This document shows, one piece after another, positions 2,853-35,335 of a stretch of DNA of 37,984 nt. How positions within the stretch are numbered: the first letter of the stretch is position 1; the number at the start of each line of letters is the position of its first letter. Under the pieces are notes generated by a model. It was not told the DNA's origin and made no database searches. It was given only the letters and a program-made list of their open reading frames with translations. Origin of the DNA: an uncultured Candidatus Saccharibacteria bacterium (lineage in GTDB: Bacteria; Patescibacteriota; Minisyncoccia; UBA6257; GWB1-50-10); the NCBI GenBank assembly GCA_964528065.1, contig CAZGRD010000003.1, positions 1 through 37,984 of the forward strand. The letters run 5' to 3'. Made by a program: the position numbers and the translations under genes.

Positions 2853-4094
2853 CTAAATAATAACACCGCCGCCCAAAAGTTCACCTTCCTCGGAGTAAAA
2901 AACCGCCGATTGACCCGGGGCAACGAATTTCTGAGGCTCTTTAAAGGTTAACTTTATTCCTGATTCGTTACTCATGATTCTTGCCTCGGCCGGCGGCTGG
3001 CGATAACGAACACGCACTAAAACATCCTTTCGCCAATTCGCGCCGGAGATCCCGAGCAATATCGAGGGACAAATTGTTCCAGGAAAATCCGGGTTTATAA
3101 AACTGACGTGCGCAAGATCAACTTCTCCTTTATACAAAGCCGGATTGTCGCTGCCCTCGGCAACGACAACGGTGTTCGTTTTCACGTCTTTGGCCGCCAC
3201 GTAATGCGGCTTCGTTTCGTGCCGTCCCCCGATTCGCGATTTATAATTTGAAATTCCAATGTGCCGCTGACCGATGGTATAAAACCCCGCCCCGTCGTGC
3301 TCGCCCACTTTTTCGCCGGCCGTCGTGAGAACTTTTCCCTTCTCCGCCGGAATGCGTTTTTTCAGGAAATCCCGCAGACTGACTTTTCCCAAAAAACAAA
3401 TCCCCTGCGAATCCTTCTTCTCGGCCGTCGGCAACCCGGCCCGTCTCGCCATCTCCCTCACCTCACTCTTCAAATAATCGCCGATTGGAAAAAGACAATG
3501 CTTCAGCTGGTCTTGGACCAAAGTCCAGAGAAAATAAGATTGGTCTTTGTTTTTATCTTTGGCTTCAAATAAGTTTAGCAAGCCGGCATTTTCTTGAGAG
3601 AAGCTCTCGGAACTCTCGCGGGCTTGGTCTCCAAAGGAGCCGCGAGAGCGAGAGCGCAGGTCGGCTTCGGCCGCTGGAGCCGAAGAACGACCGGTTCTCG
3701 AAAGAGAATGACGGCGAAGCTTAACATAGTGTCCGGTCGCCACATAATCCGCGCCCAAAGACAACGCTTTTTCCAAAAACAACCCGAATTTTATCTCCTT
3801 GTTGCACATCACGTCCGGATTGGGCGTAATTCCCCGTTTATAGCCCTCAACCATATACTCCACCACTCTCTGCTTATACTCTTTTTCGAAATTAAAAACG
3901 TAGAAGGGAATATTCAGATGAGCTGCCACCCGGCGGGCATCCGTCGCATCGCGTTCGGCACAGCCGTCAAGGTTATAGCAGCGCATGAAAACACCGGTCA
4001 CATCATAGCCGGCATCGCGCAAAAGAAGAGCGGCAACCGATGAGTCCACTCCGCCCGACATCGCGACATACGCTTTTTTCCCATTGCTTGACAT
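2853..4094 (-). CDS. mnmA: tRNA 2-thiouridine(34) synthase MnmA
   Basis: PP-loop motif AMSGGVDSS near the N-terminus. Catalytic Cys contexts NPDVMCNKEIKF and DSQGICFLG. KDQSYFL motif and C-terminal PGQSAVFY..GGG. Confidence 0.9.
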   Translation of the reverse strand: MSSNGKKAYVAMSGGVDSSVAALLLRDAGYDVTGVFMRCYNLDGCAERDATDARRVAAHLNIPFYVFNFEKEYKQRVVEYMVEGYKRGITPNPDVMCNKEIKFGLFLEKALSLGADYVATGHYVKLRRHSLSRTGRSSAPAAEADLRSRSRGSFGDQARESSESFSQENAGLLNLFEAKDKNKDQSYFLWTLVQDQLKHCLFPIGDYLKSEVREMARRAGLPTAEKKDSQGICFLGKVSLRDFLKKRIPAEKGKVLTTAGEKVGEHDGAGFYTIGQRHIGISNYKSRIGGRHETKPHYVAAKDVKTNTVVVAEGSDNPALYKGEVDLAHVSFINPDFPGTICPSILLGISGANWRKDVLVRVRYRQPPAEARIMSNESGIKLTFKEPQKFVAPGQSAVFYSEEGELLGGGVII

Positions 4095-11300: not shown

Positions 11301-12662
11301 ATGAAAAGACGCCTTCGGAACATTCTCTTTTCGATTTTCGTCCTGTTTTTCATGGTCCTCGGCGGTTACCTTATCTTCATCGCTCAGGGTTTCGTCGTAA
11401 ATCTTAAAGAGCTGAGAATCGAAAAAACCGGCGCCATTTTCCTGAAATTCGCGCCCCGGGATGCCGCTCTTTCGATAGACGGCGAAAAAACAGATTATAC
11501 GCAGAGCGGCTTCCTGGAATCGAACGGCCTCATCGTAAAGGACCTTGTTCCCGGCTCGTACGACCTCAAGCTTTCCAAAGACGGATATCACGACTGGGGA
11601 AAAAACCTGGAAGTTCAGTCGGGACTTATCACTTCCGAAAGCCACATCAATTTATGGCCGAAAACACTGCCGGCCGAAACGTTGATAAAAGAAAACGTCA
11701 GGGATTTTTGGCTGACGAGCGAAGGAGTCGTCCATAAAAACGGCAATAACCGGATAATCTTCAACGACCTCGTAATAAGAGGCAATGATGTCGCCCTTTC
11801 CGACAGCGACTCGAAAATTCTGATTACGAAAGAAAGAGAAGATTATTTCCTCGTTGACCTTAAGGATTCCCGCTCGGCCGTAAACCTCACCCATCTTTTC
11901 AACTCCCTCAAACAGCGTCAGCTGGCCCTTTCCGGCACCGTCCCCATAACGGAAATTTTCTTTCACCCTTTTAGCCCGAACAAGATAGTTATTGCGAGCA
12001 AAACCTCGCTTTATACGATTGACGTAAAGAAAGTCGAAATCGACAAGCTCGTCACCCTGGACGAAATAAAATCGGTGGCTTTGAGCGTAAGCGACGCCTT
12101 AATCCTCGACGGAAACGACGACCTTATGATAATAAACCTCCCTCTCAAAACCTCCCTTAACGAAAGGGTAAAAATGGAGCCGGCCGAGATTTTTACGACC
12201 AATTCCGACGGCACGAGCGTTTTTGTCCTTACTCCGGCCGGTGAACTGAAAGTTTACAGGCGTTCTCCCGGAAAAACCGATACTCTTGCCGCGAACGTCC
12301 GGGAATTTGAAATTTCTCCCGAAGAAAAAAGAATCGCTGTCATAACACTCGGCAACGAACTCAAGATCGCCTATCCCGAAGAATTTGAAGGAGACGTAAA
12401 AAGCGAGGCCGGGACGATTGTTAAAATCCCGGACGCGTTCCGGGGAAATATAAGAAAAGTAAGCTGGCTCGCCGACTCCCCGAATTACCTGATGCTTTTG
12501 GAGGGAAACGACTTAATCGTCCAGGAAATCGACACAAGAATGCCCGCAAACCGCCACCTTCTCCAAAGCGGAGTTCTCGATTATGAAACGGAAGGCAAAA
12601 ATATTTATATCCTGAAAGTAAACGGCGAGCTTACCGTTTCCTCCACTGCTGAGGGCGTCTAG
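11301..12662 (+). CDS. Membrane-anchored PEGA-like domain protein with a beta-rich C-terminal region
   Basis: The in-frame ATG at 11301 gives MKRRLRNILFSIFVLFFMVLGGYLIFIA (N-terminal TM helix). A PEGA-like segment follows: PRDAALSIDGEKT...LVPGSYDLKLSKDGYHDW. The ORF-track start at 10806 lies antisense inside murA. Confidence 0.5.
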   Translation: MKRRLRNILFSIFVLFFMVLGGYLIFIAQGFVVNLKELRIEKTGAIFLKFAPRDAALSIDGEKTDYTQSGFLESNGLIVKDLVPGSYDLKLSKDGYHDWGKNLEVQSGLITSESHINLWPKTLPAETLIKENVRDFWLTSEGVVHKNGNNRIIFNDLVIRGNDVALSDSDSKILITKEREDYFLVDLKDSRSAVNLTHLFNSLKQRQLALSGTVPITEIFFHPFSPNKIVIASKTSLYTIDVKKVEIDKLVTLDEIKSVALSVSDALILDGNDDLMIINLPLKTSLNERVKMEPAEIFTTNSDGTSVFVLTPAGELKVYRRSPGKTDTLAANVREFEISPEEKRIAVITLGNELKIAYPEEFEGDVKSEAGTIVKIPDAFRGNIRKVSWLADSPNYLMLLEGNDLIVQEIDTRMPANRHLLQSGVLDYETEGKNIYILKVNGELTVSSTAEGV

Positions 12663-13059
12663 CCTTGCGAAGGCCGGGTTTTTTTCGCTCCACCATCCGC
12701 GAGTCACGGGTAAGATACCCGAAAGCTTTGAGGCGGGGCCTAAAACCGGAATCGAACAAAATAAGAGCGCGGGAAATTCCCAAACGCACCGCTTCGGCTT
12801 GACCCGAAAGGCCGCCGCCCCTGACTTTTACGGTCGTCTTCACGCCGGTTAGAGTCAATTTATCGAAAGGAGCGTTGATAACGCCTTGTTCTTTCTTTGT
12901 CGGAAAGTACTTTCCGAATTCCTTGTCGTTCACCGTAATATCGTTTTTGCCGCTTCCCGCCGCGGGGAAAATCCTCACCCTTGCGATGGCGGTTTTCCTC
13001 CGGCCCACGGCCTCGAAGTAACGCTCGGTTTTTTGTTTTTTGGCGATTTTTACCGTCAT
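12631..13059 (-). CDS. rpsI: 30S ribosomal protein S9
   Basis: GRRKTAIARVRI, VKVRGGGLSGQAEAVRLGISRAL and LTRDSRMVERKK. Confidence 0.92.
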   Translation of the reverse strand: MTVKIAKKQKTERYFEAVGRRKTAIARVRIFPAAGSGKNDITVNDKEFGKYFPTKKEQGVINAPFDKLTLTGVKTTVKVRGGGLSGQAEAVRLGISRALILFDSGFRPRLKAFGYLTRDSRMVERKKPGLRKARRPQQWRKR

Positions 13060-13407: not shown

Positions 13408-13754
13408 ACGAATTCTATAACCGCCATTTTTGCCGCGTCGCTCTTCCTGACTTTCAGGTGCTTTAAAATCCTGGTATAGCCGCCTTTCCTTTCCTTGTAA
13501 CGCGGCGCGATGTCGTTGTAAAGCTTGTAAGCCAAAGGCTTCGGGAGATTTTTAAGAAGGAGACGGAGCCCGGCAAGGTTCTGGCTTTTGCCGTAGGTTA
13601 CCAGCCGGTCAACGTAAGTCTTTATTTCCTTTGCCCGCGCTTCGGTGGTTAAAATCCGTCCGTCCCGCACCAGATTACCGGCGAGCACTTTTAAAAAAGA
13701 GCGGCGTTCGCTCTTCTTGCGGCCGAATTTCCTCCCCTTTTTTAAATGTCTCAT
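13404..13754 (-). CDS. rplQ: 50S ribosomal protein L17
   Basis: MRHLKKGRKFGRKKSERRSFL..LTTEARAKE..YVDRLVT, typical of L17. Confidence 0.9.
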   Translation of the reverse strand: MRHLKKGRKFGRKKSERRSFLKVLAGNLVRDGRILTTEARAKEIKTYVDRLVTYGKSQNLAGLRLLLKNLPKPLAYKLYNDIAPRYKERKGGYTRILKHLKVRKSDAAKMAVIEFV

Positions 13755-13840
13755 GCCAGTGTTGTTAAAACTTACGAGCTCAATGCGAAGTAAATTTTAC
13801 CACAACATTGAGCACTCTGAGATTTATCGAAGAGTTACCT
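13755..13840 (-). repeat. 86-bp start-codon-abutting cassette, copy 1 (upstream of rplQ)
   Basis: 84/86 identical to 16208..16293 and about 67/86 identical to 22207..22292 (hand alignment, no gaps). Contains TGGTAAAAT (13802..13794, minus strand) and an interrupted inverted repeat at 13757..13810. Fills the rpoA-rplQ spacer. Confidence 0.85.
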
Positions 13841-13847
13841 TATTTGT

Positions 13848-14624
13848 TTAAGATTTCTCTTTCTTCGGTCTTCCTTTTTTCTTCTTCTCTTCTTTTTTGC
13901 CTTCCGGTTCATTCATGACTTCGGCCCTCGTCACTTCAACCAAAGAAACTTTTTCGAAGTGGTCCTTCAAGATATTGGCCGCTTTGTGAATCGCTTCCGA
14001 TGGACTAATTGTCCCGTCCGTTTCTATCCTGATTTTAAGGCAGTTATAATCGGTGCGGTCGCCGACTCTCATGTTTTCAACCGAAAACTCAACCTGCTCC
14101 ACCGGAGAAAAAATGGCATCAAGGACGATAGTGCCGACATTCAACCGTTCCAAGCGCCTCGATTCGGCCGGCACGTAACCCAGGCCTTTCTCGACGATAA
14201 GCTCCATGTCGAGTTCGGCTCCTTTTTTAGTGAGAGTGGCAAGATGTAAGTCGGGATTCACCACCTTTACGAGAGTGGTGGATTCGATATCGCCCGCCTT
14301 CACTTCACGCTCGCCTTTTACCGTAAGCTTCAGCGTCTGGGGCTCGTCGGCAAGAAAATGAAATCTTACTTTTTTGAGATTCAAAATAAACTCGACTACG
14401 TCTTCAATCATTCCGGGAATGGTCGAAAATTCGTGGTCGGCGCCTTTCACCTTGATTTGAGTAATGGCGGCGCCGGGCAAAGACGAAAGCAAAACCCGCC
14501 TTATGGCGTTTCCCAAGGTTACGCCATAGCCGGTATAAAGGCCTTCAACGTGAAAAACTCCGGACTTTTCGTTCTCGGAAATCTTTTTAACTTTTAATGT
14601 TTCGCTAAGATAGGAATATTTCAT
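13848..14624 (-). CDS. rpoA: DNA-directed RNA polymerase alpha subunit, N-terminal domain only, with a lysine-rich tail
   Basis: GNAIRRVLLSS, IPGMIEDV and VENMRVGDRTDYNCLKIRIETDG are typical of the alpha N-terminal domain. The protein ends at 258 aa with EPEGKKEEKKKKGRPKKEKS. Confidence 0.88.
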   Translation of the reverse strand: MKYSYLSETLKVKKISENEKSGVFHVEGLYTGYGVTLGNAIRRVLLSSLPGAAITQIKVKGADHEFSTIPGMIEDVVEFILNLKKVRFHFLADEPQTLKLTVKGEREVKAGDIESTTLVKVVNPDLHLATLTKKGAELDMELIVEKGLGYVPAESRRLERLNVGTIVLDAIFSPVEQVEFSVENMRVGDRTDYNCLKIRIETDGTISPSEAIHKAANILKDHFEKVSLVEVTRAEVMNEPEGKKEEKKKKGRPKKEKS

Positions 14625-16089: not shown

Positions 16090-16203
16090 TTAACCCTGTC
16101 TTTGCTTGTGTTTGGGAGTCTTGCAGATAACGTAAATGCGCCCGCGACGGCGGACAATCTTGCAATTATTGCAGATTTTTTTAACTGAAGCTCTTACTTT
16201 CAT
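16090..16203 (-). CDS. rpmJ: 50S ribosomal protein L36
   Basis: Below the ORF-track size cut-off. Hand translation gives [37 protein letters not shown], 37 aa, with a TAA stop at 16092..16090. Confidence 0.9.
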
Positions 16204-16207
16204 ACAT

Positions 16208-16293
16208 GCCAATGTTGTTAAAATTTACGAGCTCAATGCGAAGTAAATTTTACCACAACATTGAGCACTCTGAGATTTATCGAAGAGTTACCT
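16208..16293 (-). repeat. 86-bp cassette, copy 2 (upstream of rpmJ, offset 4 nt from the L36 ATG)
   Basis: Differs from copy 1 at 2 positions. Inverted repeat at 16210..16263. TGGTAAAAT at 16255..16247. The cassette's terminal ATG (16207..16205) is out of frame with the L36 ATG. Confidence 0.85.
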
Positions 16294-16384
16294 TTTCAAT
16301 AATGTAATCCTTCGACAAGCTCAGGATAAGGTTTGCTGACTAAATTTTCTGCGTCCTCCGGACTTGAAAATTCAGAGCAAGACC

Positions 16385-16600
16385 TTACATTCTTCTTACA
16401 ATCCGGCCTCGCCTGTCGTTCAATCCCGGCATTTCAATAATGACCCGGTCGCCGGGAATTACCCGAATGTGGTTGATTTTCATCTTACCGGCCAAGTGGG
16501 CTAAAACTTCGCCACCACCGGCAAGTTCCACCCGAAAGAGCAGGCCCGGCAATGCTTCCTCGACGATGCCTTCTATTTGTATGCCTTTGTCTCGTTTCAT
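16385..16600 (-). CDS. infA: Translation initiation factor IF-1
   Basis: 71 aa S1-like fold: IQIEGIVEEALPGLLFRVEL..GGEVLAHLAGKMK.NHIRVIPGDRV. Confidence 0.9.
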   Translation of the reverse strand: MKRDKGIQIEGIVEEALPGLLFRVELAGGGEVLAHLAGKMKINHIRVIPGDRVIIEMPGLNDRRGRIVRRM

Positions 16601-16644: not shown

Positions 16645-18258
16645 TCAATTGAGGATTATTTTTACCTTGTCGGGGTCCACCGGCACCCTGTTCACCCAGA
16701 AGGGCCAGAGAGAAATGTTCGCCCGCTCCAAGCCGGAAAGGAAAAAGACGGTCTTCCTCAGTTCCTCTTCGTTCTGACCGGCGAATTCCTGCTTCAGTTC
16801 TTCAACGTTAAGGTCCGGCTCAAAAACCACCTCCCCTTCAACCGGAAAAACCACCGAAGTTTCGGCAAAATCAATATTTGCCTCGCCGTAATCTATCGAA
16901 AATTCTTTCACCCTCGTACCGGGGTCAACGGTTTTCTGAGCGTCGGAAACAACGGCGCCTTTTAACATTTCTTCCTCAAAAACAAGGTAGCGAAGCTCGG
17001 CCTCGGCAAAAATGCGGAAAGTTCCTTCGTCGCCGCCCGTCTCGATTTTTTCGGTCAAAACGTCGAACTCCCGGGCATTCGGAAAAACCTTGAATTTATC
17101 GGAGAGCAAAATAAGCACCTGAGCTTCGAGAACTCCTTCCAAGTCCGAAAACAATTTCGTTTTCCCTTTGCTTATGTCTTCTTCGGTCGGCACGGCTTCT
17201 TCCCCTACGAAACCGCCGCTCATCGCTTCAACGGAGTCGGCATAAAAACCTTCGTACCGCGGGTCGCCTTTAAATCCGGGAATCCGCCAGTATTTTTCCG
17301 AAGCGATGTTGTAATCTTCGCCCGCTTCGCCAGCCGTAACTTTTACGCTGATTTTGGATGGGACAATTTTCCCGTTCTCGATTTTCGCGCCGGGAATGGT
17401 CATCCGTTCGTCGAGGCGAAATATTTTCCCGCTCGGAGAAAGAAACCTAGTTGTCGCGACAAGCACCTGGGATTCGGAACTGTAAGCGTTGTAAACCGTA
17501 AGAATGCCTTTTGCTCTTCGTTCGACTTTTTCCCGGCCGGAAGCGGGAAAACTCAAACTCAAGTTTCCTTTCGCTTTGAGAAGTTCGGCGGGAAGAATCA
17601 TTTTCGTCCCCTGAGCGGCGGCAACCTGATGGTCGATTGTCGCCTCCACTTCGTAAGCGAAAGTGACCGGAACTTTTTTGAGAATCATCTCCACGGTCGC
17701 TTTGGGCAGAATGCGGTTTGCGGCAAACGCGCCGCCTGCGACGACCAAAACCACCAGAGCGAAAGAAAAGGCTCTTTTCAAAATCCGATGCCTTTTGTTG
17801 TTTCTGAAAGCTTTTTTGGCCTCAGCCGGCAAAACTATCTTTTTGAACTCGAGAAGCGTTTCTTCTTCCTCTTCTTCCTCTTCCGCAGATTCTTCTTCCG
17901 TAACTTCTTCTGCGGCCTCTTCTTCTTCGGCACTTACCTCCGGTATTCTTCTGAACGCCGGTTTCGGCAGAATGTCGGAAATGACTCTTTCCCTCCGCCT
18001 GAAAACAGGGTTAAAGGCCTTAATTTTAGCGAGAGCCGCAAGCTCCAAAGTCCTGTCGTCAACCGATTCAATATGGAGTTCCTTATCCGCCGTCAAACTT
18101 TCTCTTCTTAAAACATGAAAATTATTTACCGATGAGGCCAGGACCGAATCGCGGGGAATATTCAAAACGACGATATGGCTCTTGGCTTCAATCAGCCGGT
18201 GAACGGCAACGTCAAGGTCTTCGTTTTTATCGAGAAAGAATTTTTTTTCGGTTTTCAT
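16645..18258 (-). CDS. Hypothetical single-pass membrane protein (cytoplasmic N-domain, poly-Glu linker, large external beta-rich domain)
   Basis: 537-aa ORF. Acidic run is SAEEEEAAEEVTEEESAEEEEEEEE. The one hydrophobic helix is AFSFALVVLVVAGGAFAA. I recognise no catalytic motif. Confidence 0.55.
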   Translation of the reverse strand: MKTEKKFFLDKNEDLDVAVHRLIEAKSHIVVLNIPRDSVLASSVNNFHVLRRESLTADKELHIESVDDRTLELAALAKIKAFNPVFRRRERVISDILPKPAFRRIPEVSAEEEEAAEEVTEEESAEEEEEEEETLLEFKKIVLPAEAKKAFRNNKRHRILKRAFSFALVVLVVAGGAFAANRILPKATVEMILKKVPVTFAYEVEATIDHQVAAAQGTKMILPAELLKAKGNLSLSFPASGREKVERRAKGILTVYNAYSSESQVLVATTRFLSPSGKIFRLDERMTIPGAKIENGKIVPSKISVKVTAGEAGEDYNIASEKYWRIPGFKGDPRYEGFYADSVEAMSGGFVGEEAVPTEEDISKGKTKLFSDLEGVLEAQVLILLSDKFKVFPNAREFDVLTEKIETGGDEGTFRIFAEAELRYLVFEEEMLKGAVVSDAQKTVDPGTRVKEFSIDYGEANIDFAETSVVFPVEGEVVFEPDLNVEELKQEFAGQNEEELRKTVFFLSGLERANISLWPFWVNRVPVDPDKVKIILN

Positions 18259-18269
18259 ATGTTATACGG

Positions 18270-19409
18270 TCAGTGTTTTGCCGTAAGCCACCTTGCCCTC
18301 CGGGCAAGAAGGTCGTTCAAGAATCCATACTGGGGCGGGGAATAAACGTGAGTGATGAAGGCAAGAACGTTATCGGCGTTTAAAAACGGCGCGCTTTCTT
18401 GATTCATTATAACACCGTAACCCTGCTCTGTAAGCAAATTTTTGAAATTAACGAGTTTCATCCGGGGTCCGAGAAATTTGCCGACAAGCACTGACGGCAA
18501 ATTGAAACCGAAGTAAAAATCGGGCTGCCGGCCCCGCCCTCCCGACCTGGGAAGAAGTTTCAATAAATTCTGAATTTCTTCCCTTATCATGCCCTCTATC
18601 GCTTTTTTTATCTTTCCGGAGGGCGGTTCTTTATCGAGGGACAGGAGAATTTCGGCGGCGACGCCGGTCGAAACACCGAAGAAAACGGCGATTTTTCTCA
18701 AAATCAGGCCGCTTCCCCACGGCAAAACCTTCAGGTGAAGCCAGTCCTCTTCGCCGTTTGCGAAAACGTTGGTGGCTTTGTCGCCGACGAGAACGAAATA
18801 ATCGGAAGGCGGCGGAACCGAAAGCCCGAGAATCCCGCCGCTCTCGACAAGAATCTTTTCCCTTCCCCAATGCTCCATTTTCTCGATGAGCGCCTCGAGG
18901 TCCCGGTGGATGAAAGTTCCCCGATAGCGGAAATAAAGGTTCGCGCCTTTAAAGCCTTGCGGATTAAAAACCCGGGATTGCCCCAAAGAAACTTCCCTTA
19001 TTTCGGCTCCGGCAAGAATCAAATCCAGGTCGTGAGCGCCGAGTTTCTTCGAAACCGTGCCCCGGTAACGATTCAAAAACTCCCAAAGACCGCGGAAAAC
19101 GAGAGTGTCGATTTCGGTCTCGCTGATCGGTTCGTCCGGCTCGCTTCTTTTTAAATGAATTGTGCTTTCAATCGTAACGGCTTTATCCGACCCCACCGCC
19201 AGAATCACTTTATCGACGGGAAAAAGAGGTTTTTTGATTCCTTCGAAATTCTCAACGAAACCCGTGCCGTAAACGTTTATTTTTTTATCCTTGTTTCTGA
19301 TTTTTGCCCTGGTCACGCCAAAGCCGAAGCCGAGATCTTCTATAACCAAAAAGGACTCCTGCTCTCTTTTCGGCAGTTTCTTCAATCTATCGAAAAGTTC
19401 GCCAACCAC
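18270..19409 (-). CDS. Hypothetical protein, possibly a divergent FtsA/PilM-like actin-fold protein
   Basis: 379-aa ORF with a GTG start. Segment order resembles FtsA/PilM: FLVIEDLGFGFGV..; ..SRVFNPQGFKGANLYFRY..; ..YFVLVGDKATNVF..LPWGSGLILRKIA... Canonical DxG/GGGT phosphate motifs are not conserved. Confidence 0.35.
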   Translation of the reverse strand: MVGELFDRLKKLPKREQESFLVIEDLGFGFGVTRAKIRNKDKKINVYGTGFVENFEGIKKPLFPVDKVILAVGSDKAVTIESTIHLKRSEPDEPISETEIDTLVFRGLWEFLNRYRGTVSKKLGAHDLDLILAGAEIREVSLGQSRVFNPQGFKGANLYFRYRGTFIHRDLEALIEKMEHWGREKILVESGGILGLSVPPPSDYFVLVGDKATNVFANGEEDWLHLKVLPWGSGLILRKIAVFFGVSTGVAAEILLSLDKEPPSGKIKKAIEGMIREEIQNLLKLLPRSGGRGRQPDFYFGFNLPSVLVGKFLGPRMKLVNFKNLLTEQGYGVIMNQESAPFLNADNVLAFITHVYSPPQYGFLNDLLARRARWLTAKH

Positions 19410-19973: not shown

Positions 19974-20036
19974 TGTCTGACTCGTTTAATTTGCTTCTAA
20001 TTTATTAATCATAATGCCTTTCTCTAAAAACGAAAA

Positions 20037-20060
20037 GGTGGTATACTTAAGTAGACCACC
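20037..20060. promoter_or_regulatory. 24-bp near-perfect palindrome (site A), candidate operator at the 5' end of the HTH gene
   Basis: GGTGGTATACTTAAGTAGACCACC, with one mismatch to perfect dyad symmetry. Preceded by TTCTCTAAAAAC (20020..20031). Contains TATACT 14 nt before the ATG at 20062. Confidence 0.6.
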
Positions 20061-20061
20061 T

Positions 20062-20385
20062 ATGTCGAAAACCAGCAGGAAAAACTTTGACGGGGAATTT
20101 AGAAAAGAAATTTGGAAAGTTTTCTGGGCGGAAATCGCAAGAGCGAGAAAAACCGGTCCGGCCGGTTTCCTCTCGCGGTTCCTAACCGAAGAAGAACGAA
20201 TTGTTCTGGAAAAAAGACTGGCCGCTCTCTATTTTTTGAAACGCGGTGAGAGTTTGAGAGAAACCGGCAAAAAAGCCGACGTCGCCAAAAAAACCGTAAT
20301 TTTCATCAAGCGCGGCTTGAAACAGCTAAATTACAAAAGGAGAGTTTATTCAAAAACTCCCGGAAAGAGCAAGCTCAAACAGTAG
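20062..20385 (+). CDS. TrpR/YerC-YecD-like helix-turn-helix protein
   Basis: FLTEEERIVLEKRLAALYFLKRGESLRETGKKADVAKKTVIFIKRGLKQLNY matches the layout of the TrpR-related YerC/YecD family. The ORF-track start at 20014 would place the palindrome inside the coding sequence, so I prefer the in-frame ATG at 20062 (107 aa). Confidence 0.6.
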   Translation: MSKTSRKNFDGEFRKEIWKVFWAEIARARKTGPAGFLSRFLTEEERIVLEKRLAALYFLKRGESLRETGKKADVAKKTVIFIKRGLKQLNYKRRVYSKTPGKSKLKQ

Positions 20386-20440: not shown

Positions 20441-20464
20441 GGTGGTATACTTAAGTATACCACC
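20441..20464. promoter_or_regulatory. 24-bp perfect palindrome (site B), second operator copy and/or bidirectional terminator hairpin
   Basis: GGTGGTATACTTAAGTATACCACC. Preceded by TTCTCTAAAAAC (20415..20426). Lies in the convergent spacer between the HTH gene and alaS. On the minus strand it is followed by CTTGGATTTGTTTGGTTTTTAG (U-rich). Confidence 0.6.
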
Positions 20465-20502
20465 TTACCTTACCAAAGCGCGGCGCAAGAGTGATTTGTC
20501 TG

Positions 20503-22206
20503 CTATTCAACGGTTGCTCTGATTCTACGGACGCCGGCTGACGACGCTTCTTCTTTAATAATTTTGAATTTGCCGATTTCGTCGGTGTGGGTCACGTGAG
20601 GCCCGCCGCAAAATTCCTTGCTCCAGGCACTCTCGAGCGTTTTCCCGACATAGTAAACTTTCACCCGGTCCGGATACTTGCCTTTGAAAAAATGGAGAGC
20701 GCCGGTTTTTTCCGCCTCTTCCTTCGACATCTCCTTAAAACCAACCGGCAAGTCTTCCTTTATTTTCTCGTTAACCAGCTTCTCCGCCTTTTCGATTTCC
20801 TCTTTCGTCATTTTCCGCGGAAAAGTAAAGTCAAACCGTGTCCGCTCGATCGTAATGTCCGAACCGCGCTGGGCAACTTCCGGCCCCAGCACTTCCCGGA
20901 GCGCCTGATTCAATAAGTGAGTGGCGGTATGGAGCCGTGTCACTTTTTTCAGTTCTTCCCCGTCCCCGGCTTTTAGTTCACCGGTGTCCAAAACGAGGCC
21001 GTGGCCGCCGAACTTTTTTTCCTGACCGGCCCGCGATATTTCCTGATGCTTCTCGAATTCCTTGTCGAAATCTTCACGGCGAAGCTTCTTGGCCTTATCT
21101 CCGCCCAGCTCTTTTATAATCTCGTAAGGCAAACCGTAACTCGAAAAAATGTTGAAAGCCCTTTCAACGTCCAAATCTTCTGTTTTTTTGAGTTCCCTTA
21201 ACCCGATCTCCAGAGTTTTTTCGAAACGCTCCTTTTCGGCGTTAAATTCCTCAAGTACTACTTCACCGTTAAGTTCGGAATAAAAAGCTTCGTAGTTTTC
21301 GAAAACCTCATCAAAAACATGCTGAGGATCAATCGTGTTGCCGGCAAGATAGAAATGGGTAACGAGACGGCGAATCAGCCGGCGCAGAATGTACCCCGCT
21401 TCCTTGTTTGAAGGACGCACCCCGTCGGAGAGAAGAAAAGCGATGCCTCGGCTGTGGTCGGCTAAAATCCGCTTCGTTTTCTCGTTAAGTTTCTCCGGCA
21501 GAAATTTCATGAGTGGCTTGAACAAGTCCGTCTCAAAAATTGTCGGCACGTTTTGCGAGACCATCGCAAGCCGCTCCAGGCCCATCCCCGTATCCACGCC
21601 CGGCGTTTTCAGTTTTTCCAAACCGCGAGGCGAACTGTAGTATTCGTTGAAAACAATGTTCCAAATCTCCACGCCGCGAACGTAAACTTCCGTCGTCGGC
21701 CCGCAGGGTCCCTCACTGCCGGTCGGCCCCCAAAAGTTATCTTCCCGTCCGAATTTTCTCACGTCGGTAACGCCCAAAGCGCGCCAAACCTTTTCCGATT
21801 CCTTATCGGGCGGCACGTCATCGTCTCCTTTAAAAACGCTCACGTAATCTATTGGGAGCTTCATCTCCTTGGTGATGAATTCGTAGGCATATTCTATCGC
21901 TTCTTTTTTGAAATAGCCGCCAAAAGAAAAATTGCCGAGCATCTCGAAAAAAGTGAGGTGAGATTCGTCGCCAACTTCGTCGATGTCCGAAGTCCGGAAC
22001 GATTTCTGAATCGAGGCCGTGTTCTTACTTCCGAAATCCTTCACCGGGTCGAGTTCGCCGGTAAAGTGCCGTTTGAACTGCTGCATACCGGCGGTGGTCA
22101 AAAGTACCGAAGGGTCGTCGGGAATAAGCGAGGAAGAAAGCACGATTGCGTGTTCCTTTCTTTCAAAAAATTCCAGAAAAAGTTTTCTTATTTTTTCCGA
22201 ATTCAT
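20503..22206 (-). CDS. alaS: Alanine--tRNA ligase, compact form (catalytic plus editing core, no C-Ala domain)
   Basis: N-terminus is IRKLFLEFFERKEHAIV.SSSLIP.DPSVLLTTAGMQQFK. Also DTGMGLERLA, editing-site HTATHLLNQAL and FCGGPHV. The protein ends at GVRRIRATVE (567 aa). Confidence 0.88.
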   Translation of the reverse strand: MNSEKIRKLFLEFFERKEHAIVLSSSLIPDDPSVLLTTAGMQQFKRHFTGELDPVKDFGSKNTASIQKSFRTSDIDEVGDESHLTFFEMLGNFSFGGYFKKEAIEYAYEFITKEMKLPIDYVSVFKGDDDVPPDKESEKVWRALGVTDVRKFGREDNFWGPTGSEGPCGPTTEVYVRGVEIWNIVFNEYYSSPRGLEKLKTPGVDTGMGLERLAMVSQNVPTIFETDLFKPLMKFLPEKLNEKTKRILADHSRGIAFLLSDGVRPSNKEAGYILRRLIRRLVTHFYLAGNTIDPQHVFDEVFENYEAFYSELNGEVVLEEFNAEKERFEKTLEIGLRELKKTEDLDVERAFNIFSSYGLPYEIIKELGGDKAKKLRREDFDKEFEKHQEISRAGQEKKFGGHGLVLDTGELKAGDGEELKKVTRLHTATHLLNQALREVLGPEVAQRGSDITIERTRFDFTFPRKMTKEEIEKAEKLVNEKIKEDLPVGFKEMSKEEAEKTGALHFFKGKYPDRVKVYYVGKTLESAWSKEFCGGPHVTHTDEIGKFKIIKEEASSAGVRRIRATVE

Positions 22207-22292
22207 GCCAAATTTATTAAAATTTGCGAACCTTTGGTGAAGTAAATTTTACCATAAATTTGAGCACTCTGAGGCGCACCGAAGAGTTACCT
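22207..22292 (-). repeat. 86-bp cassette, copy 3 (upstream of alaS), the divergent copy
   Basis: Same length and same register relative to the ATG. TGGTAAAAT at 22254..22246. Inverted repeat at 22209..22262 with three compensatory pair changes relative to copies 1 and 2. The stop codon of the upstream gene (22287..22289) lies inside the cassette. Confidence 0.8.
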
Positions 22293-23639
22293 GTTATTCA
22301 CTATGAGAACCTTAAGCTCGGCGAGCATTATTTTGGCGCTCCTGATTTCGGAGACGGTGTCCGCTTCAAGAACGGTCTTCTCGGCCCGGTCGAAAAGTTC
22401 ATAAATTTCCGTCGCTACCTCCCGGGTTATGTTTTTAGCTCTTGCGACATTCACCAAATCGTCGAACTGAATCCTCAAAGAAAGGTTGTCTTCCTTAATT
22501 TCCTTCTTCAAGCGGGTTTGGCTCAAACCGTTTTGGGCGGCGGCTTGGGCCGCGGCCGCCTGGCCGAAAGCCGTTGCGAGCTGTCCTTCGCCCATAAGAT
22601 TGCCCGCCTGGGTGAGATAAAATTCCGCTCTTTCCAGGAGCTCGCCGACCGATTTCGAAGAAACATATTCGTCCGACGAAATTCTCGTCTTCAGTTCTTC
22701 TGTCGCTTTTTCGGCTTCGTAAATCAGTTTGGTAAGCGACTCTTCTTCAACCACGCCGCCGTTGCCGTTCTGGAAAGTGCTCTGACGAACGATATTTAGT
22801 TCGCTTTTCAGGTCGCCGTCGGATATTCTTTCTCTTATTTCGTCGAAAATACCGAGGTCGGCGGCGTCTTTTACGGGCAGGAAGTCGAGATGAGGCGTTA
22901 TTTCTTCCGGCTCCGCCTTGAATCGCCCCTCAAAAATAGAAGTCAAATCGGTTTCCAATTCCCTGATTTTATCCTTGATTCCGTCCGGTACTTTTCCTTC
23001 GATATAGTTCAAAACATAAACAACTCGAAGTTCTTTCAGGGGATTTTCCTTGAGAGCAAACAAAACATTTTCCACCCGGGTCTTGAATTCGTCGGGCGAA
23101 TCGAACTTGGTTACCGCCTCGGCAACCGCAGTCTCGAGTTCTGTCCTTGCGGCGGCAAGTTCCTCTTTGACCCCGGCAACGCCCTCGAGGTCGCTGAAAA
23201 CCTCTTCATGTTTGACAATCCGGTCCATAAGAGCGTCCAAGAGTCGGTCTACGTTTTCGTTCCCGCTCTTATCACTAAGAGAAGAAATTCTCTGCCGCAA
23301 CCGCTCGGCGTTCTCTTTGTAATTTTGAAGAGCGAGAATCAAGCCTTTTTCGTTTTCTTTTTCCTCCAGGGCTTTGATTTCGGCCGCGATTTCGTTCAAA
23401 ACTTCCGTCTCAAAAGACGCCTTTCTCTCGTTGCCGAACGAAAAAAACCGCCGGATTCCCCGCTGCCAATTCTTCAGAAAGTAAAGCGCGTCTCCCGGCA
23501 GAAGCTTCGGCTCTTTAAGCCCCAAATCCTCAAAAGTTATACCGCTCCCGCTTTCGTCTCCCTCGTGAGCAACCGCACTGAAAGGAACGGCGATAAGGAT
23601 AAGACCGAATATCAAAACCGAAAGAAAAAGTTTCTTCAT
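22287..23639 (-). CDS. Secreted all-helical hypothetical protein (possibly DUF5667-like)
   Basis: Signal peptide MKKLFLSVLIFGLILIAVPFSAVA. LPGDALYFLKNWQRGIRRFF segment. Long E/K/L-rich helical sequence. Sits 3 nt after the rpoD stop. Confidence 0.5.
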   Translation of the reverse strand: MKKLFLSVLIFGLILIAVPFSAVAHEGDESGSGITFEDLGLKEPKLLPGDALYFLKNWQRGIRRFFSFGNERKASFETEVLNEIAAEIKALEEKENEKGLILALQNYKENAERLRQRISSLSDKSGNENVDRLLDALMDRIVKHEEVFSDLEGVAGVKEELAAARTELETAVAEAVTKFDSPDEFKTRVENVLFALKENPLKELRVVYVLNYIEGKVPDGIKDKIRELETDLTSIFEGRFKAEPEEITPHLDFLPVKDAADLGIFDEIRERISDGDLKSELNIVRQSTFQNGNGGVVEEESLTKLIYEAEKATEELKTRISSDEYVSSKSVGELLERAEFYLTQAGNLMGEGQLATAFGQAAAAQAAAQNGLSQTRLKKEIKEDNLSLRIQFDDLVNVARAKNITREVATEIYELFDRAEKTVLEADTVSEIRSAKIMLAELKVLIVNNR

Positions 23640-29758: not shown

Positions 29759-29759
29759 G

Positions 29760-29846
29760 CGGAAGGGGCGAGATTCGAACTCGCGGTGCCATTTCTGACA
29801 CACAGTCTTTCCAGGACTGCCATTTAAACCACTCATGCACCCTTCC
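29760..29846 (-). tRNA. tRNA-Ser (anticodon GGA), type II with a long variable arm; CCA not encoded
   Basis: Hand fold of GGAAGGGTGCATGAGTGGTTTAAATGGCAGTCCTGGAAAGACTGTGTGTCAGAAATGGCACCGCGAGTTCGAATCTCGCCCCTTCCG. It has a 7-bp acceptor stem and a 3-bp D stem with GG in the loop. The anticodon stem is CAGTC/GACTG with loop CTGGAAA. The variable stem is 5 bp, and the T arm is GCGAG-TTCGAAT-CTCGC. Confidence 0.9.
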
Positions 29847-32555: not shown

Positions 32556-32583
32556 ATTATACCAAAGTCCTAAAATCAGGCAA
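32556..32583 (-). promoter_or_regulatory. lemA promoter, TTGCCT-16-(TGG)TATAAT, with the -10 box 6 nt from the ATG (leaderless)
   Basis: Minus strand reads TTGCCTGATTTTAGGACTTTGGTATAATTGTTTTATG. No Shine-Dalgarno sequence. Confidence 0.55.
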
Positions 32584-35232: not shown

Positions 35233-35246
35233 AGGTTTGTCTTTTA

Positions 35247-35273
35247 TTGGCACTCACGACCTTTTATTGCCAA
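35247..35273. promoter_or_regulatory. CIRCE-like inverted repeat (candidate HrcA operator), degenerate
   Basis: TTGGCACTC-ACGACCTTT-TATTGCCAA against the consensus TTAGCACTC-N9-GAGTGCTAA. The 9-nt spacing and position between the groES promoter and its ATG are correct. One half-site is degenerate. Confidence 0.5.
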
Positions 35274-35285
35274 TCCAGTTATGAT

Positions 35286-35313
35286 ATTTTAGCGGAGCGC
35301 CGAAGGTTGTCAA
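35286..35313 (-). promoter_or_regulatory. groESL promoter, TTGACA-16-TAAAAT
   Basis: Minus strand reads TTGACAACCTTCGGCGCTCCGCTAAAAT. Confidence 0.6.
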
Positions 35314-35335
35314 GAGAGTTCCCGGAAGGTAAAAT
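35307..35335 (+). promoter_or_regulatory. relA/spoT promoter, TTGTCA-17-TAAAAT, back-to-back with the groESL promoter
   Basis: Plus strand reads TTGTCAAGAGAGTTCCCGGAAGGTAAAAT, followed by 11 nt and then the ATG at 35347. Its -35 box overlaps the groESL -35 box on the opposite strand. Confidence 0.5.

Follow-up and report, generated by a model that had tools for sequence, protein, structure and literature searches.

A start-codon-abutting cassette in Jorgensenbacteria is best described as half of a new, structured palindromic repeat family with a putative promoter

Why should one and the same short non-coding sequence stand directly before three different genes of a tightly packed bacterial genome, ending each time at an ATG? 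This question is raised by a 37,984-nt stretch of contig CAZGRD010000003.1 (hereafter the window), deposited as an uncultured Candidatus Saccharibacteria bacterium, for which an initial annotation had recorded an 86-bp cassette upstream of rplQ, rpmJ and alaS and had read it as a portable promoter or 5'-leader module placed before translation genes. We found that this cassette is best described as the gene-facing half of a new family of structured, putatively promoter-bearing palindromic repeats in Jorgensenbacteria. The two-hairpin structure with its compensatory changes, the inverted second half, the exact placement between stop and start codons and the likeness to repetitive extragenic palindromic (REP) sequences and to MITEs (miniature inverted-repeat transposable elements) are all missing from that annotation.

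Direct reading and a repeat search both located three copies on the minus strand, at 13752-13841, 16205-16294 and 22204-22293 (90 nt each, ATG included), which we refer to as W1 (the rplQ copy), W2 (the rpmJ copy) and W3 (the alaS copy). Over 86 nt without gaps, W1 and W2 are identical at 84 positions, W1 and W3 at 65 and W2 and W3 at 67, in good agreement with the earlier hand alignment, which had given 2 differences for the first pair and about 67 matches for the third copy. When an nhmmer profile of the three copies was run against the window, the copies were recovered at E = 1e-27 to 1e-29, and no further match better than E = 0.4 was obtained in the rest of it. Pfam matches confirmed the downstream genes and identified their neighbours: L17 (13404-13754) and RpoA (13848-14624), L36 (16090-16200) and IF-1 (16385-16600), AlaRS (20503-22206) and a DUF5667 protein (22287-23639), as well as a sigma-70 factor. 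Each copy ends in TTGGC with an ATG directly after it, as had been annotated in substance, but the ATG abutting W2 (16205-16207) is out of frame and the true rpmJ start lies 4 nt further downstream, at 16200. W1 does not fill the whole rpoA-rplQ spacer, as had been thought, because 7 nt (13841-13847) are left over after the rpoA stop; and the opening 'CAGG' of W3 belongs to the last codons of the upstream DUF5667 gene, the stop codon of which is the TAA within the GTAAC of W3 (22287-22289).

The window's L17 protein and its counterpart in Candidatus Jorgensenbacteria bacterium GWA1_49_17 are 100% identical. The same rpoA-element-rplQ junction was present, with 1 mismatch, on the independent JGI contig L009, so the window copies are not a product of assembly, a danger that the initial annotation had pointed out. 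An N-gap in a same-genome scaffold does sit exactly where another contig has a copy, which means that these repeats disturb assembly; nevertheless, with junctions shared by independent assemblies, orthologous copies in other metagenome-assembled genomes and E-values of 1e-20 or better, an assembly artefact or a chance similarity has practically no prospect of explaining the family.

The repeated unit is ~83 nt long. GTAA comes first, followed by a short hairpin (P1) between conserved CTTCG/CTCAG flanks and then by a long bulged hairpin (P2) of ~21 bp, and the sequence differences that separate W1 and W2 from W3 are compensatory. Further copies in relatives, which had been expected, were gathered by a scan of a genome collection and a scan of metagenomes, anchored on different blocks. 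Among nine close copies, 97.4% of the alignment cells pair and eight pairs have changes on both sides, values that were reached by none of 500 shuffles; pairing fell to 27-47% when the 3' partners in this alignment were slid. Among 23 copies of both half-types, 95.4% of the cells pair (72% in shuffles) and 28 of the 30 pairs show double changes, figures that are somewhat inflated because this alignment was fitted to the covariance model R1. Across the two alignments, sliding the 3' partners reduced pairing to 27-51%. The proS copy has a P2 interior that is wholly different in sequence with unchanged helices, and the peroxiredoxin copy has a shorter P2. GTAA precedes P1 in nearly every aligned unit, whichever its orientation, the exceptions being the left half of L008 (GTTA) and the rearranged L016 rpmJ copy.

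Two other structural candidates were rejected. One was a pseudoknot joining the loop of P1 to the apical loop of P2: the two loops are complementary in W3 and L002 but not in W1, W2, L003 or L006 (alignment judged by eye). In addition, an intrinsic terminator was dismissed with the finding that none of the hairpins has a U-run after it.

Whereas W1 and W3 are single units without an inverted partner, W2 is part of a full-length element, a palindrome that reaches from the stop codon of infA to the ATG preceding rpmJ. Such full-length elements measure ~180 bp (175-190 nt) and comprise two diverged units in head-to-head arrangement, so that the GTAA ends meet in the middle. The inverted second half was found beside every full-length copy (cmsearch E = 1e-4 to 3e-7), and the same inverted arrangement was seen in L001-L004, L006, L008, L016, L017 and L021. 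Read on the sense strand, full-length copies start with the TAA stop of the upstream gene, a triplet with which the outer left hairpin opens, and end with TTGGC and the ATG; in W2, the infA stop at 16385-16387 opens the outer hairpin of the left half in this way. The elements themselves are non-coding; such reading frames as enter them are spurious continuations of the adjacent genes. The two halves have different P1 stems (ACUCU/AGAGU versus AUCCU/AGGAU, with AUUCU/AGAAU and ACCCU/AGGGU as further variants), and these changes are compensated inside each half, indicating that local hairpins rather than one giant hairpin appear to be preserved; the minimum-free-energy fold of full-length W2 pairs its two P1 regions. 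A possible left half upstream of W3 was discarded: the resemblance (CGCCGAGCTTAAGGT) is conserved C-terminal coding sequence of the DUF5667 gene and nothing else, since it also occurs in L020, which is without the element.

The P1 variants also bear on whether the element might be an operator for a DNA-binding regulator. The CIRCE operator of the HrcA regulon has the consensus TTAGCACTC-N9-GAGTGCTAA, and the most conserved block of the repeat, GAGTGCTCAA, is a CIRCE half-site but for a single inserted base (compare GAGTGCCAA at the local groES gene). With this block, GAGTGCT(C)AA, and with its last bases, TTGGCA, which correspond to the other CIRCE arm, the repeat resembles the two arms of the operator, and dnaJ lies downstream of the element in two genomes. 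However, the arms are everted and ~47 nt apart in the repeat, no left arm is present at the 9-nt spacing, and a search for canonical CIRCE (a 9-bp inverted repeat with a 9-nt gap) gave no match within 3 mismatches, only the right arm with its inserted base. The downstream genes are mostly ribosomal-protein or tRNA-synthetase genes, with few chaperone genes among them, and the P1 stem variants CT/AG, TC/GA, TT/AA and CC/GG covary, which argues for base pairing rather than half-site recognition. A CIRCE/HrcA-like operator is therefore very improbable. The groES gene of the window has its own upstream region (35235-35325, minus strand), with a TTGACA-17-TAAAAT promoter followed by a CIRCE-like TTGGCAATA-N9-GAGTGCCAA located 14 nt before the ATG.

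Gene-facing units were found before at least 11 different genes in at least six genomes or metagenome bins (Table 1), and syntenic relatives have the corresponding junctions empty, so the module is indeed portable, as had been suggested. Its proposed association with translation genes holds for many of the sites but not for dnaJ, the RodZ-like gene or the peroxiredoxin-like gene, and a remnant stands before glyA. The rpoA/rplQ junction is filled in the window genome alone and empty in L016, L020, L022 and L023, the empty spacers in syntenic relatives being 1-9 nt long. Two genomes have the element at the DUF5667/alaS junction, which is empty in L020, the genes there overlapping by ATGA; the infA/rpmJ junction is empty in L022 and L023, with spacers of 5-7 nt; and the rpsM/rpsK junction is filled only in L021. 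At the rpmJ site, ATGTATGAAAG is common to the window and a relative that has a different insert there. As far as sampled, the family is confined to a clade of Jorgensenbacteria, within the Patescibacteria or candidate phyla radiation (CPR). Two pattern scans of viral contigs were also made, and the P1 pattern matched there only by chance, in coding regions.

The P2 cores form three subfamilies that group by type and not by genome: A (rplQ, rpmJ, dnaJ and rplO), B (alaS and the RodZ-like gene) and C (rpsH and rpsK). An identical P2 core is shared by CAZUMB's dnaJ copy and L027's rplO copy. Decay is also evident, as the rpsN/rpsH copy of a GWA1-like scaffold is internally deleted and the remnant before glyA has lost its hairpin, and a JAZDPW copy has acquired nested palindromic expansions in the P1 and P2 loops. 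The infA/rpmJ copies of JAZDPW-like genomes lie at 7312-7626 in L016 and 2291-2465 in L017, the rpmJ ortholog having grown to 315 nt; in L016, the nested palindromes GACTC/GAGTC, CTGAG/CTCAG and CCCGCC..GGCGGG occupy the P1 and P2 apical loops, and the P2 stems are intact. A hammerhead ribozyme in this expansion was considered and rejected, as the CUGAUGAG-like strings give only chance Rfam matches.

These patterns are how a dispersed, duplicating repeat family behaves. They would also fit a purely selfish, non-autonomous palindromic element, MITE-like or REPIN-like, which would have no host function and would survive only in harmless, tiny intergenic gaps: sites are filled in one relative and empty in another, subfamilies are common to different loci and genomes, copies are decayed, deleted or interrupted by nested insertions, and unrelated palindromic insert families occupy comparable junctions of relatives. 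Moreover, the window genes are only 3-11 nt apart, so any tolerated insertion must sit near a start codon. Nevertheless, a single orientation is common to all 11 independent gene-facing sites, and TTGGC ends 0-2 nt from the ATG even in long intergenic spaces, with an overlap of the ATG at rpsC. The putative promoter box described below is kept in gene-facing units and degenerate in stop-facing ones, and orthologous copies are 94-100% identical, against 60-68% at synonymous sites. We therefore consider a wholly selfish element unlikely.

Relatives carry the unrelated palindromic inserts at other operon junctions, some of them flush with the ATG (terminal repeats CCCTCACCC and CCCGTTAGAA) and others 10-29 nt before it. 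Inserts of 113-136 bp were seen in L018 (648-760, 1100-1222, 4500-4622 and 5631-5759), L020 (7897-8026 and 9084-9219) and L021 (7120-7252), at junctions that measure only 0-9 nt in other genomes. One insert family, with terminal repeats CCCGTTAGA(A/G)RTC, occurs in three genomes and is flush with the start codon, as is the CCCTCACCCTTCAA family.

The constraint on old copies was assessed by comparing orthologs. The alaS copies of the window and JAZDPW are identical at 82 of 83 positions (98.8%) and their P2 cores are 100% identical, whereas the coding DNA flanking this copy is 82.0% and 84.4% identical (300 nt on each side) and third codon positions in the same two genomes are 68% identical in alaS and 60% in rplQ. 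For the left half at rpmJ, identity with its ortholog amounts to 94.5%. Substitutions between orthologous copies fall in the apical and P1 loops. Because they are far better conserved than the surrounding coding DNA, the old copies must be held by selection on the stems and boxes, or be homogenised; a simple decaying insertion is not what is seen.

What, then, might the unit contribute to its neighbours? W1, W2 and W3 all carry the sequence TGGTAAAAT, which matches the extended -10 motif TGnTAnnnT. Of 13 gene-facing P2 cores extracted by pattern, 10 have it, as does W1 in addition, and the proS copy has TGCTAAACT in the equivalent place despite its otherwise unrelated stem sequence. The initial annotation had rightly seen here the form of other promoters of the window: their promoter-like sites read TG(G/T)TAnnAT, which TGGTAAAAT fits, with a -35 box 17 nt upstream. 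In stop-facing halves the -10 box is degenerate. Some left halves have a canonical sense-strand promoter, read directly as TTGAAA-17-TAGAAT in L004 and L021 and as TTGAAA-17-TAATAT in L002. The deleted rpsH copy of the GWA1-like scaffold keeps exactly the promoter-bearing hairpin of the left half and the last 14 nt before the ATG, and the glyA remnant keeps GTGCTCAA-N6-GGTAAAAT. A promoter in the element at TGGTAAAAT is thus plausible from these motifs. The missing Shine-Dalgarno sequence, also annotated correctly, is not special to rplQ, rpmJ and alaS, because it is genome-wide: at -5 to -12 of almost every window gene (for example, those at 13059, 13407, 15236, 15693 and 16080), the sequence is A/T-rich instead. 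Elsewhere in the window, only 6 nt separate a TGGTATAAT promoter at 32564 from an ATG, implying that the mRNA is leaderless.

Whether the unit acts as DNA or as RNA was judged from its symmetry. Whichever way a unit points, it conserves GTAA and the unpaired CTTCG and CTCAG that flank P1, so the two halves would show different loop sequences on the sense RNA, and the non-Watson-Crick stem cells comprise 12 G-U and 13 A-C, with no wobble excess on the transcribed strand. Both observations point to the DNA level, or to either strand equally, and the fixed orientation and the 0-2 nt between the end of the unit and the ATG suggest a connection to gene expression.

A structured cis-acting mRNA element between stop and start, acting as an RNase III-type processing site, a stabiliser or a coupler of termination and re-initiation, would account for the strong covariation of P1 and P2, for a P2 3' arm that in almost every copy stops at -1 of the AUG, for an upstream stop codon that opens the outer hairpin in full-length copies, and for the strong conservation and the strict orientation relative to genes. 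The ancestral junctions, moreover, overlap or span 1-9 nt, which implies coupled translation. However, a single primary-sequence motif kept in both orientations, stems without an excess of G-U over A-C, apical and P1 loops that vary freely and even take nested insertions, and heterogeneous downstream genes speak against such an element, nor does any Rfam family match it. Rfam 15 at the gathering score gave 0 matches in the whole window, in line with the initial annotation, in which no known ribosomal-protein leader, T-box or riboswitch had been recognised, and permissive scans of the regions of W1, W2 and the enlarged L016 copy returned only chance-level snoRNA and miRNA matches with E above 1. 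ARAGORN, run on the window, reported a tRNA-Ser at 29759-29846 as its sole match and no tRNA-like element in the repeats. An mRNA element of this kind thus seems doubtful.

A more specific RNA-level proposal from the same sequences would be a host-selected device of ultra-compact CPR genomes that lack Shine-Dalgarno sequences, representing a new start-codon-abutting class of translation element that is also mobile-repeat-like. Its hairpins, folded flush, would keep the stop and the next AUG side by side so that terminating ribosomes could re-initiate across the base; alternatively, cleavage of the hairpins would free an mRNA starting at the AUG. The usual stop/start overlap would be replaced and a promoter added. 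We regard this possibility as improbable.

Taking the sequence evidence together, we lean towards a dispersed palindromic repeat family, similar to REPIN and Correia elements, that supplies promoters, has spread by copy-and-paste and is kept as a spacer. The unit would spread at the DNA level by a process dependent on hairpin formation and would be retained as a self-contained spacer, supplying a TAA at its 5' end, which in the alaS copy serves to terminate the upstream gene. The extended -10 promoter in the 5' arm of P2 would start transcription ~7 nt after TAAAAT, inside the P2 loop, yielding an unstructured, AU-rich leader of ~40 nt without a Shine-Dalgarno sequence, as is normal in this genome; some left halves would contribute a full -35/-10 promoter. 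In read-through operon transcripts, P1 and P2 would form flush against the AUG.

Several observations weigh against such a promoter-supplying repeat. No -35 box was found upstream of TGGTAAAAT, with TCTCAG as the best candidate at a spacing of 17 nt (for promoters of the extended -10 class, a -35 hexamer, spaced by 16-18 nt, is optional), and a consensus promoter scan does not call the element. The peroxiredoxin and rpsC copies are without the -10 box, the rpsK copy has lost its TG (TAGTAAAAT), and TGTTAAAAT also occurs on the opposite strand of W2; the -10 box could be a by-product of an AT-rich palindrome. Mobility faces objections of its own. The number of copies is modest, at five sites in ~95 kb of the window's genome (a sample chosen for ribosomal-protein operons), with no further copies in the 11 kb beyond the window on the same scaffolds. 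Comparison of filled and empty sites gave no target-site duplication consistent across sites, the flanks being TAA on the left and ATG on the right (L001 is the only copy that can be read as flanked by TA..TA), and no transposase or other partner gene was seen in ~300 kb of loci, nor any transposase among the called genes of L016-L028. Finally, the near-perfect conservation of old orthologous copies is not expected for a purely selfish repeat and could instead reflect a role at the RNA level.

Table 1. Repeat units and their parts in the window, and sites of gene-facing units by genome or contig
Feature	Position in the window	Strand	Details, evidence or occurrence
W1, single gene-facing unit, rpoA-rplQ gap	13755..13840	-	GTAAC start 13838; TTGGC end 13755; rplQ ATG from 13754
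W1 hairpin P1 (ACUCU..AGAGU and inner 2 bp)	13814..13835	-	fold and covariation
W1 hairpin P2 (~21 bp, unpaired U, GG bulge, variable apical loop)	13755..13813	-	3' arm ends at -1 of the start codon
W1 extended -10-like box TGGTAAAAT, P2 5' arm	13794..13802	-	motif comparison
W2, gene-facing (right) unit before rpmJ	16208..16293	-	P1 16267-16288; P2 16208-16266; TGGTAAAAT 16247-16255
Inverted, diverged second unit (left half) beside W2	16299..16389	+	cmsearch E = 6e-6 to 9e-6; folds
W3, single gene-facing unit, subfamily B, before alaS	22207..22290	-	P1 22266-22287; P2 22207-22265; TGGTAAAAT 22246-22254
rplQ site			window genome
rpmJ site			window, JAZDPW, a Logan contig
alaS site			window, JAZDPW
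dnaJ site			JAZDPW, CAZUMB
rpsH site			JAZDPW; internally deleted copy in a GWA1-like scaffold
RodZ-like gene site			CAZUMB, a JGI bin
rpsK site			ZHAO22 scaffold
rplO site			contig L027
rpsC site			ZHAO22; ATG inside stem
proS site			metagenome contigs L008/L010
Peroxiredoxin-like gene site			metagenome contig L007

Other features of the window and its relatives were recorded alongside. RpoA (13848-14624), whose gene lies upstream of W1, has just 258 aa, with a Lys-rich tail (...GKKEEKKKKGRPKKEKS) and no Pfam match to the alpha C-terminal domain, and the relatives are alike in all these respects. A perfect palindrome of 24-26 bp, GGTGGTATACTTAAGTATACCACC, occurs twice (20035-20060 and 20441-20466), flanking a plus-strand open reading frame (ORF) at 20014-20385 (123 aa), is conserved at the syntenic place in L020 (~3462-3490) and is probably an operator or a bidirectional terminator. 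A free-standing GIY-YIG gene of 85 aa lies between two JAZDPW genes (L016, 5111-5368) and is absent at the syntenic site of the window (18258-18270). Direct repeats 1670 nt apart and 72-75% identical (1064-1176 and 2734-2846; 25-60, 1695-1730 and 2142-2177) suggest diverged tandem paralogues around a 556-aa ORF (1179-2849).

The CPR or Patescibacteria have tiny, tightly packed genomes, and little is known of how their gene expression is controlled. In the genomes studied here, even ribosomal-protein operons gain and lose structured inserts of 80-180 bp, placed with codon-level precision between stop and start and under a constraint that exceeds that on neighbouring protein-coding DNA. If the promoter reading is true, such repeats let these genomes divide long operons anew into separate transcription units; should the RNA reading be true, they bear on translation start without Shine-Dalgarno sequences. 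In practical terms, they break assemblies and mislead gene callers. An N-run in the GWA1-like scaffold (L026, ~11800-11900) coincides with the rpsE/rplO copy seen in L027, and the public protein set lists S8 (L026, 10001-10435) with 144 aa rather than 123, 21 residues too many, because the gene call ran into a remnant element.

We found no paper on interspersed repeats of this kind in CPR bacteria, and membership of the family in the REP/REPIN, Correia/MITE or mobile-promoter groups is not established. Its two-hairpin unit, its fixed orientation, its stop-to-start position and the way old copies are conserved all depart from what is typical of those groups. TIGR-Tas stem-loop arrays were rejected as a counterpart, as those are tandem and stand beside tas genes, whereas the copies described here are dispersed single units. 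REP, BIME and REPIN sequences are extragenic imperfect palindromes that are mobilised by RAYT tyrosine transposases and have GTAG before the hairpin (PMC3116915, PMC3337134). The family described here is similar in having a tetranucleotide before the hairpin (GTAA in place of GTAG), in occurring either singly or as inverted doublets whose members lie a short spacer apart, in forming subfamilies within and between genomes, and in persisting at orthologous sites. Unlike those repeats, its unit is larger, with two hairpins (P1 and P2, ~83 nt), and its halves are diverged, each apparently folding on itself and not with its partner. The copy number, judged from the ~95 kb sampled, looks low compared with the tens to hundreds of REP/REPIN copies per genome, and no RAYT (Y1 transposase) gene, which REPs usually flank, was found in these ~95 kb. 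The strict orientation to genes, the flush stop-to-start placement and the CPR host are further differences.

The Correia repeat-enclosed elements of Neisseria (PMC2649163) and other bacterial MITEs (PMC2229807, PMC10969869) resemble the family in being ~100-180 bp long, non-coding, palindromic and gene-adjacent, with a presence that varies between strains; they can supply promoter boxes, and their transcribed hairpins can be bound by RNase III. In keeping with a MITE, the elements described here are shorter than ~500 bp and non-coding, have terminal inverted repeats (in full-length copies only) and occur as dispersed copies with insertion polymorphism. Unlike Correia elements and MITEs, they show no TA or other target-site duplication, no sequence similarity to those families and no identified site for integration host factor (IHF); their ends coincide with stop and start codons, and their orientation is fixed to the downstream gene. 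Putative mobile promoters have been described as closely similar upstream sequences before non-homologous genes, within and between genomes (PMC3575422). That concept rests on sequence similarity, whereas the family described here combines a covarying two-hairpin structure, an inverted partner and sites that are filled in some genomes and empty in their syntenic relatives.

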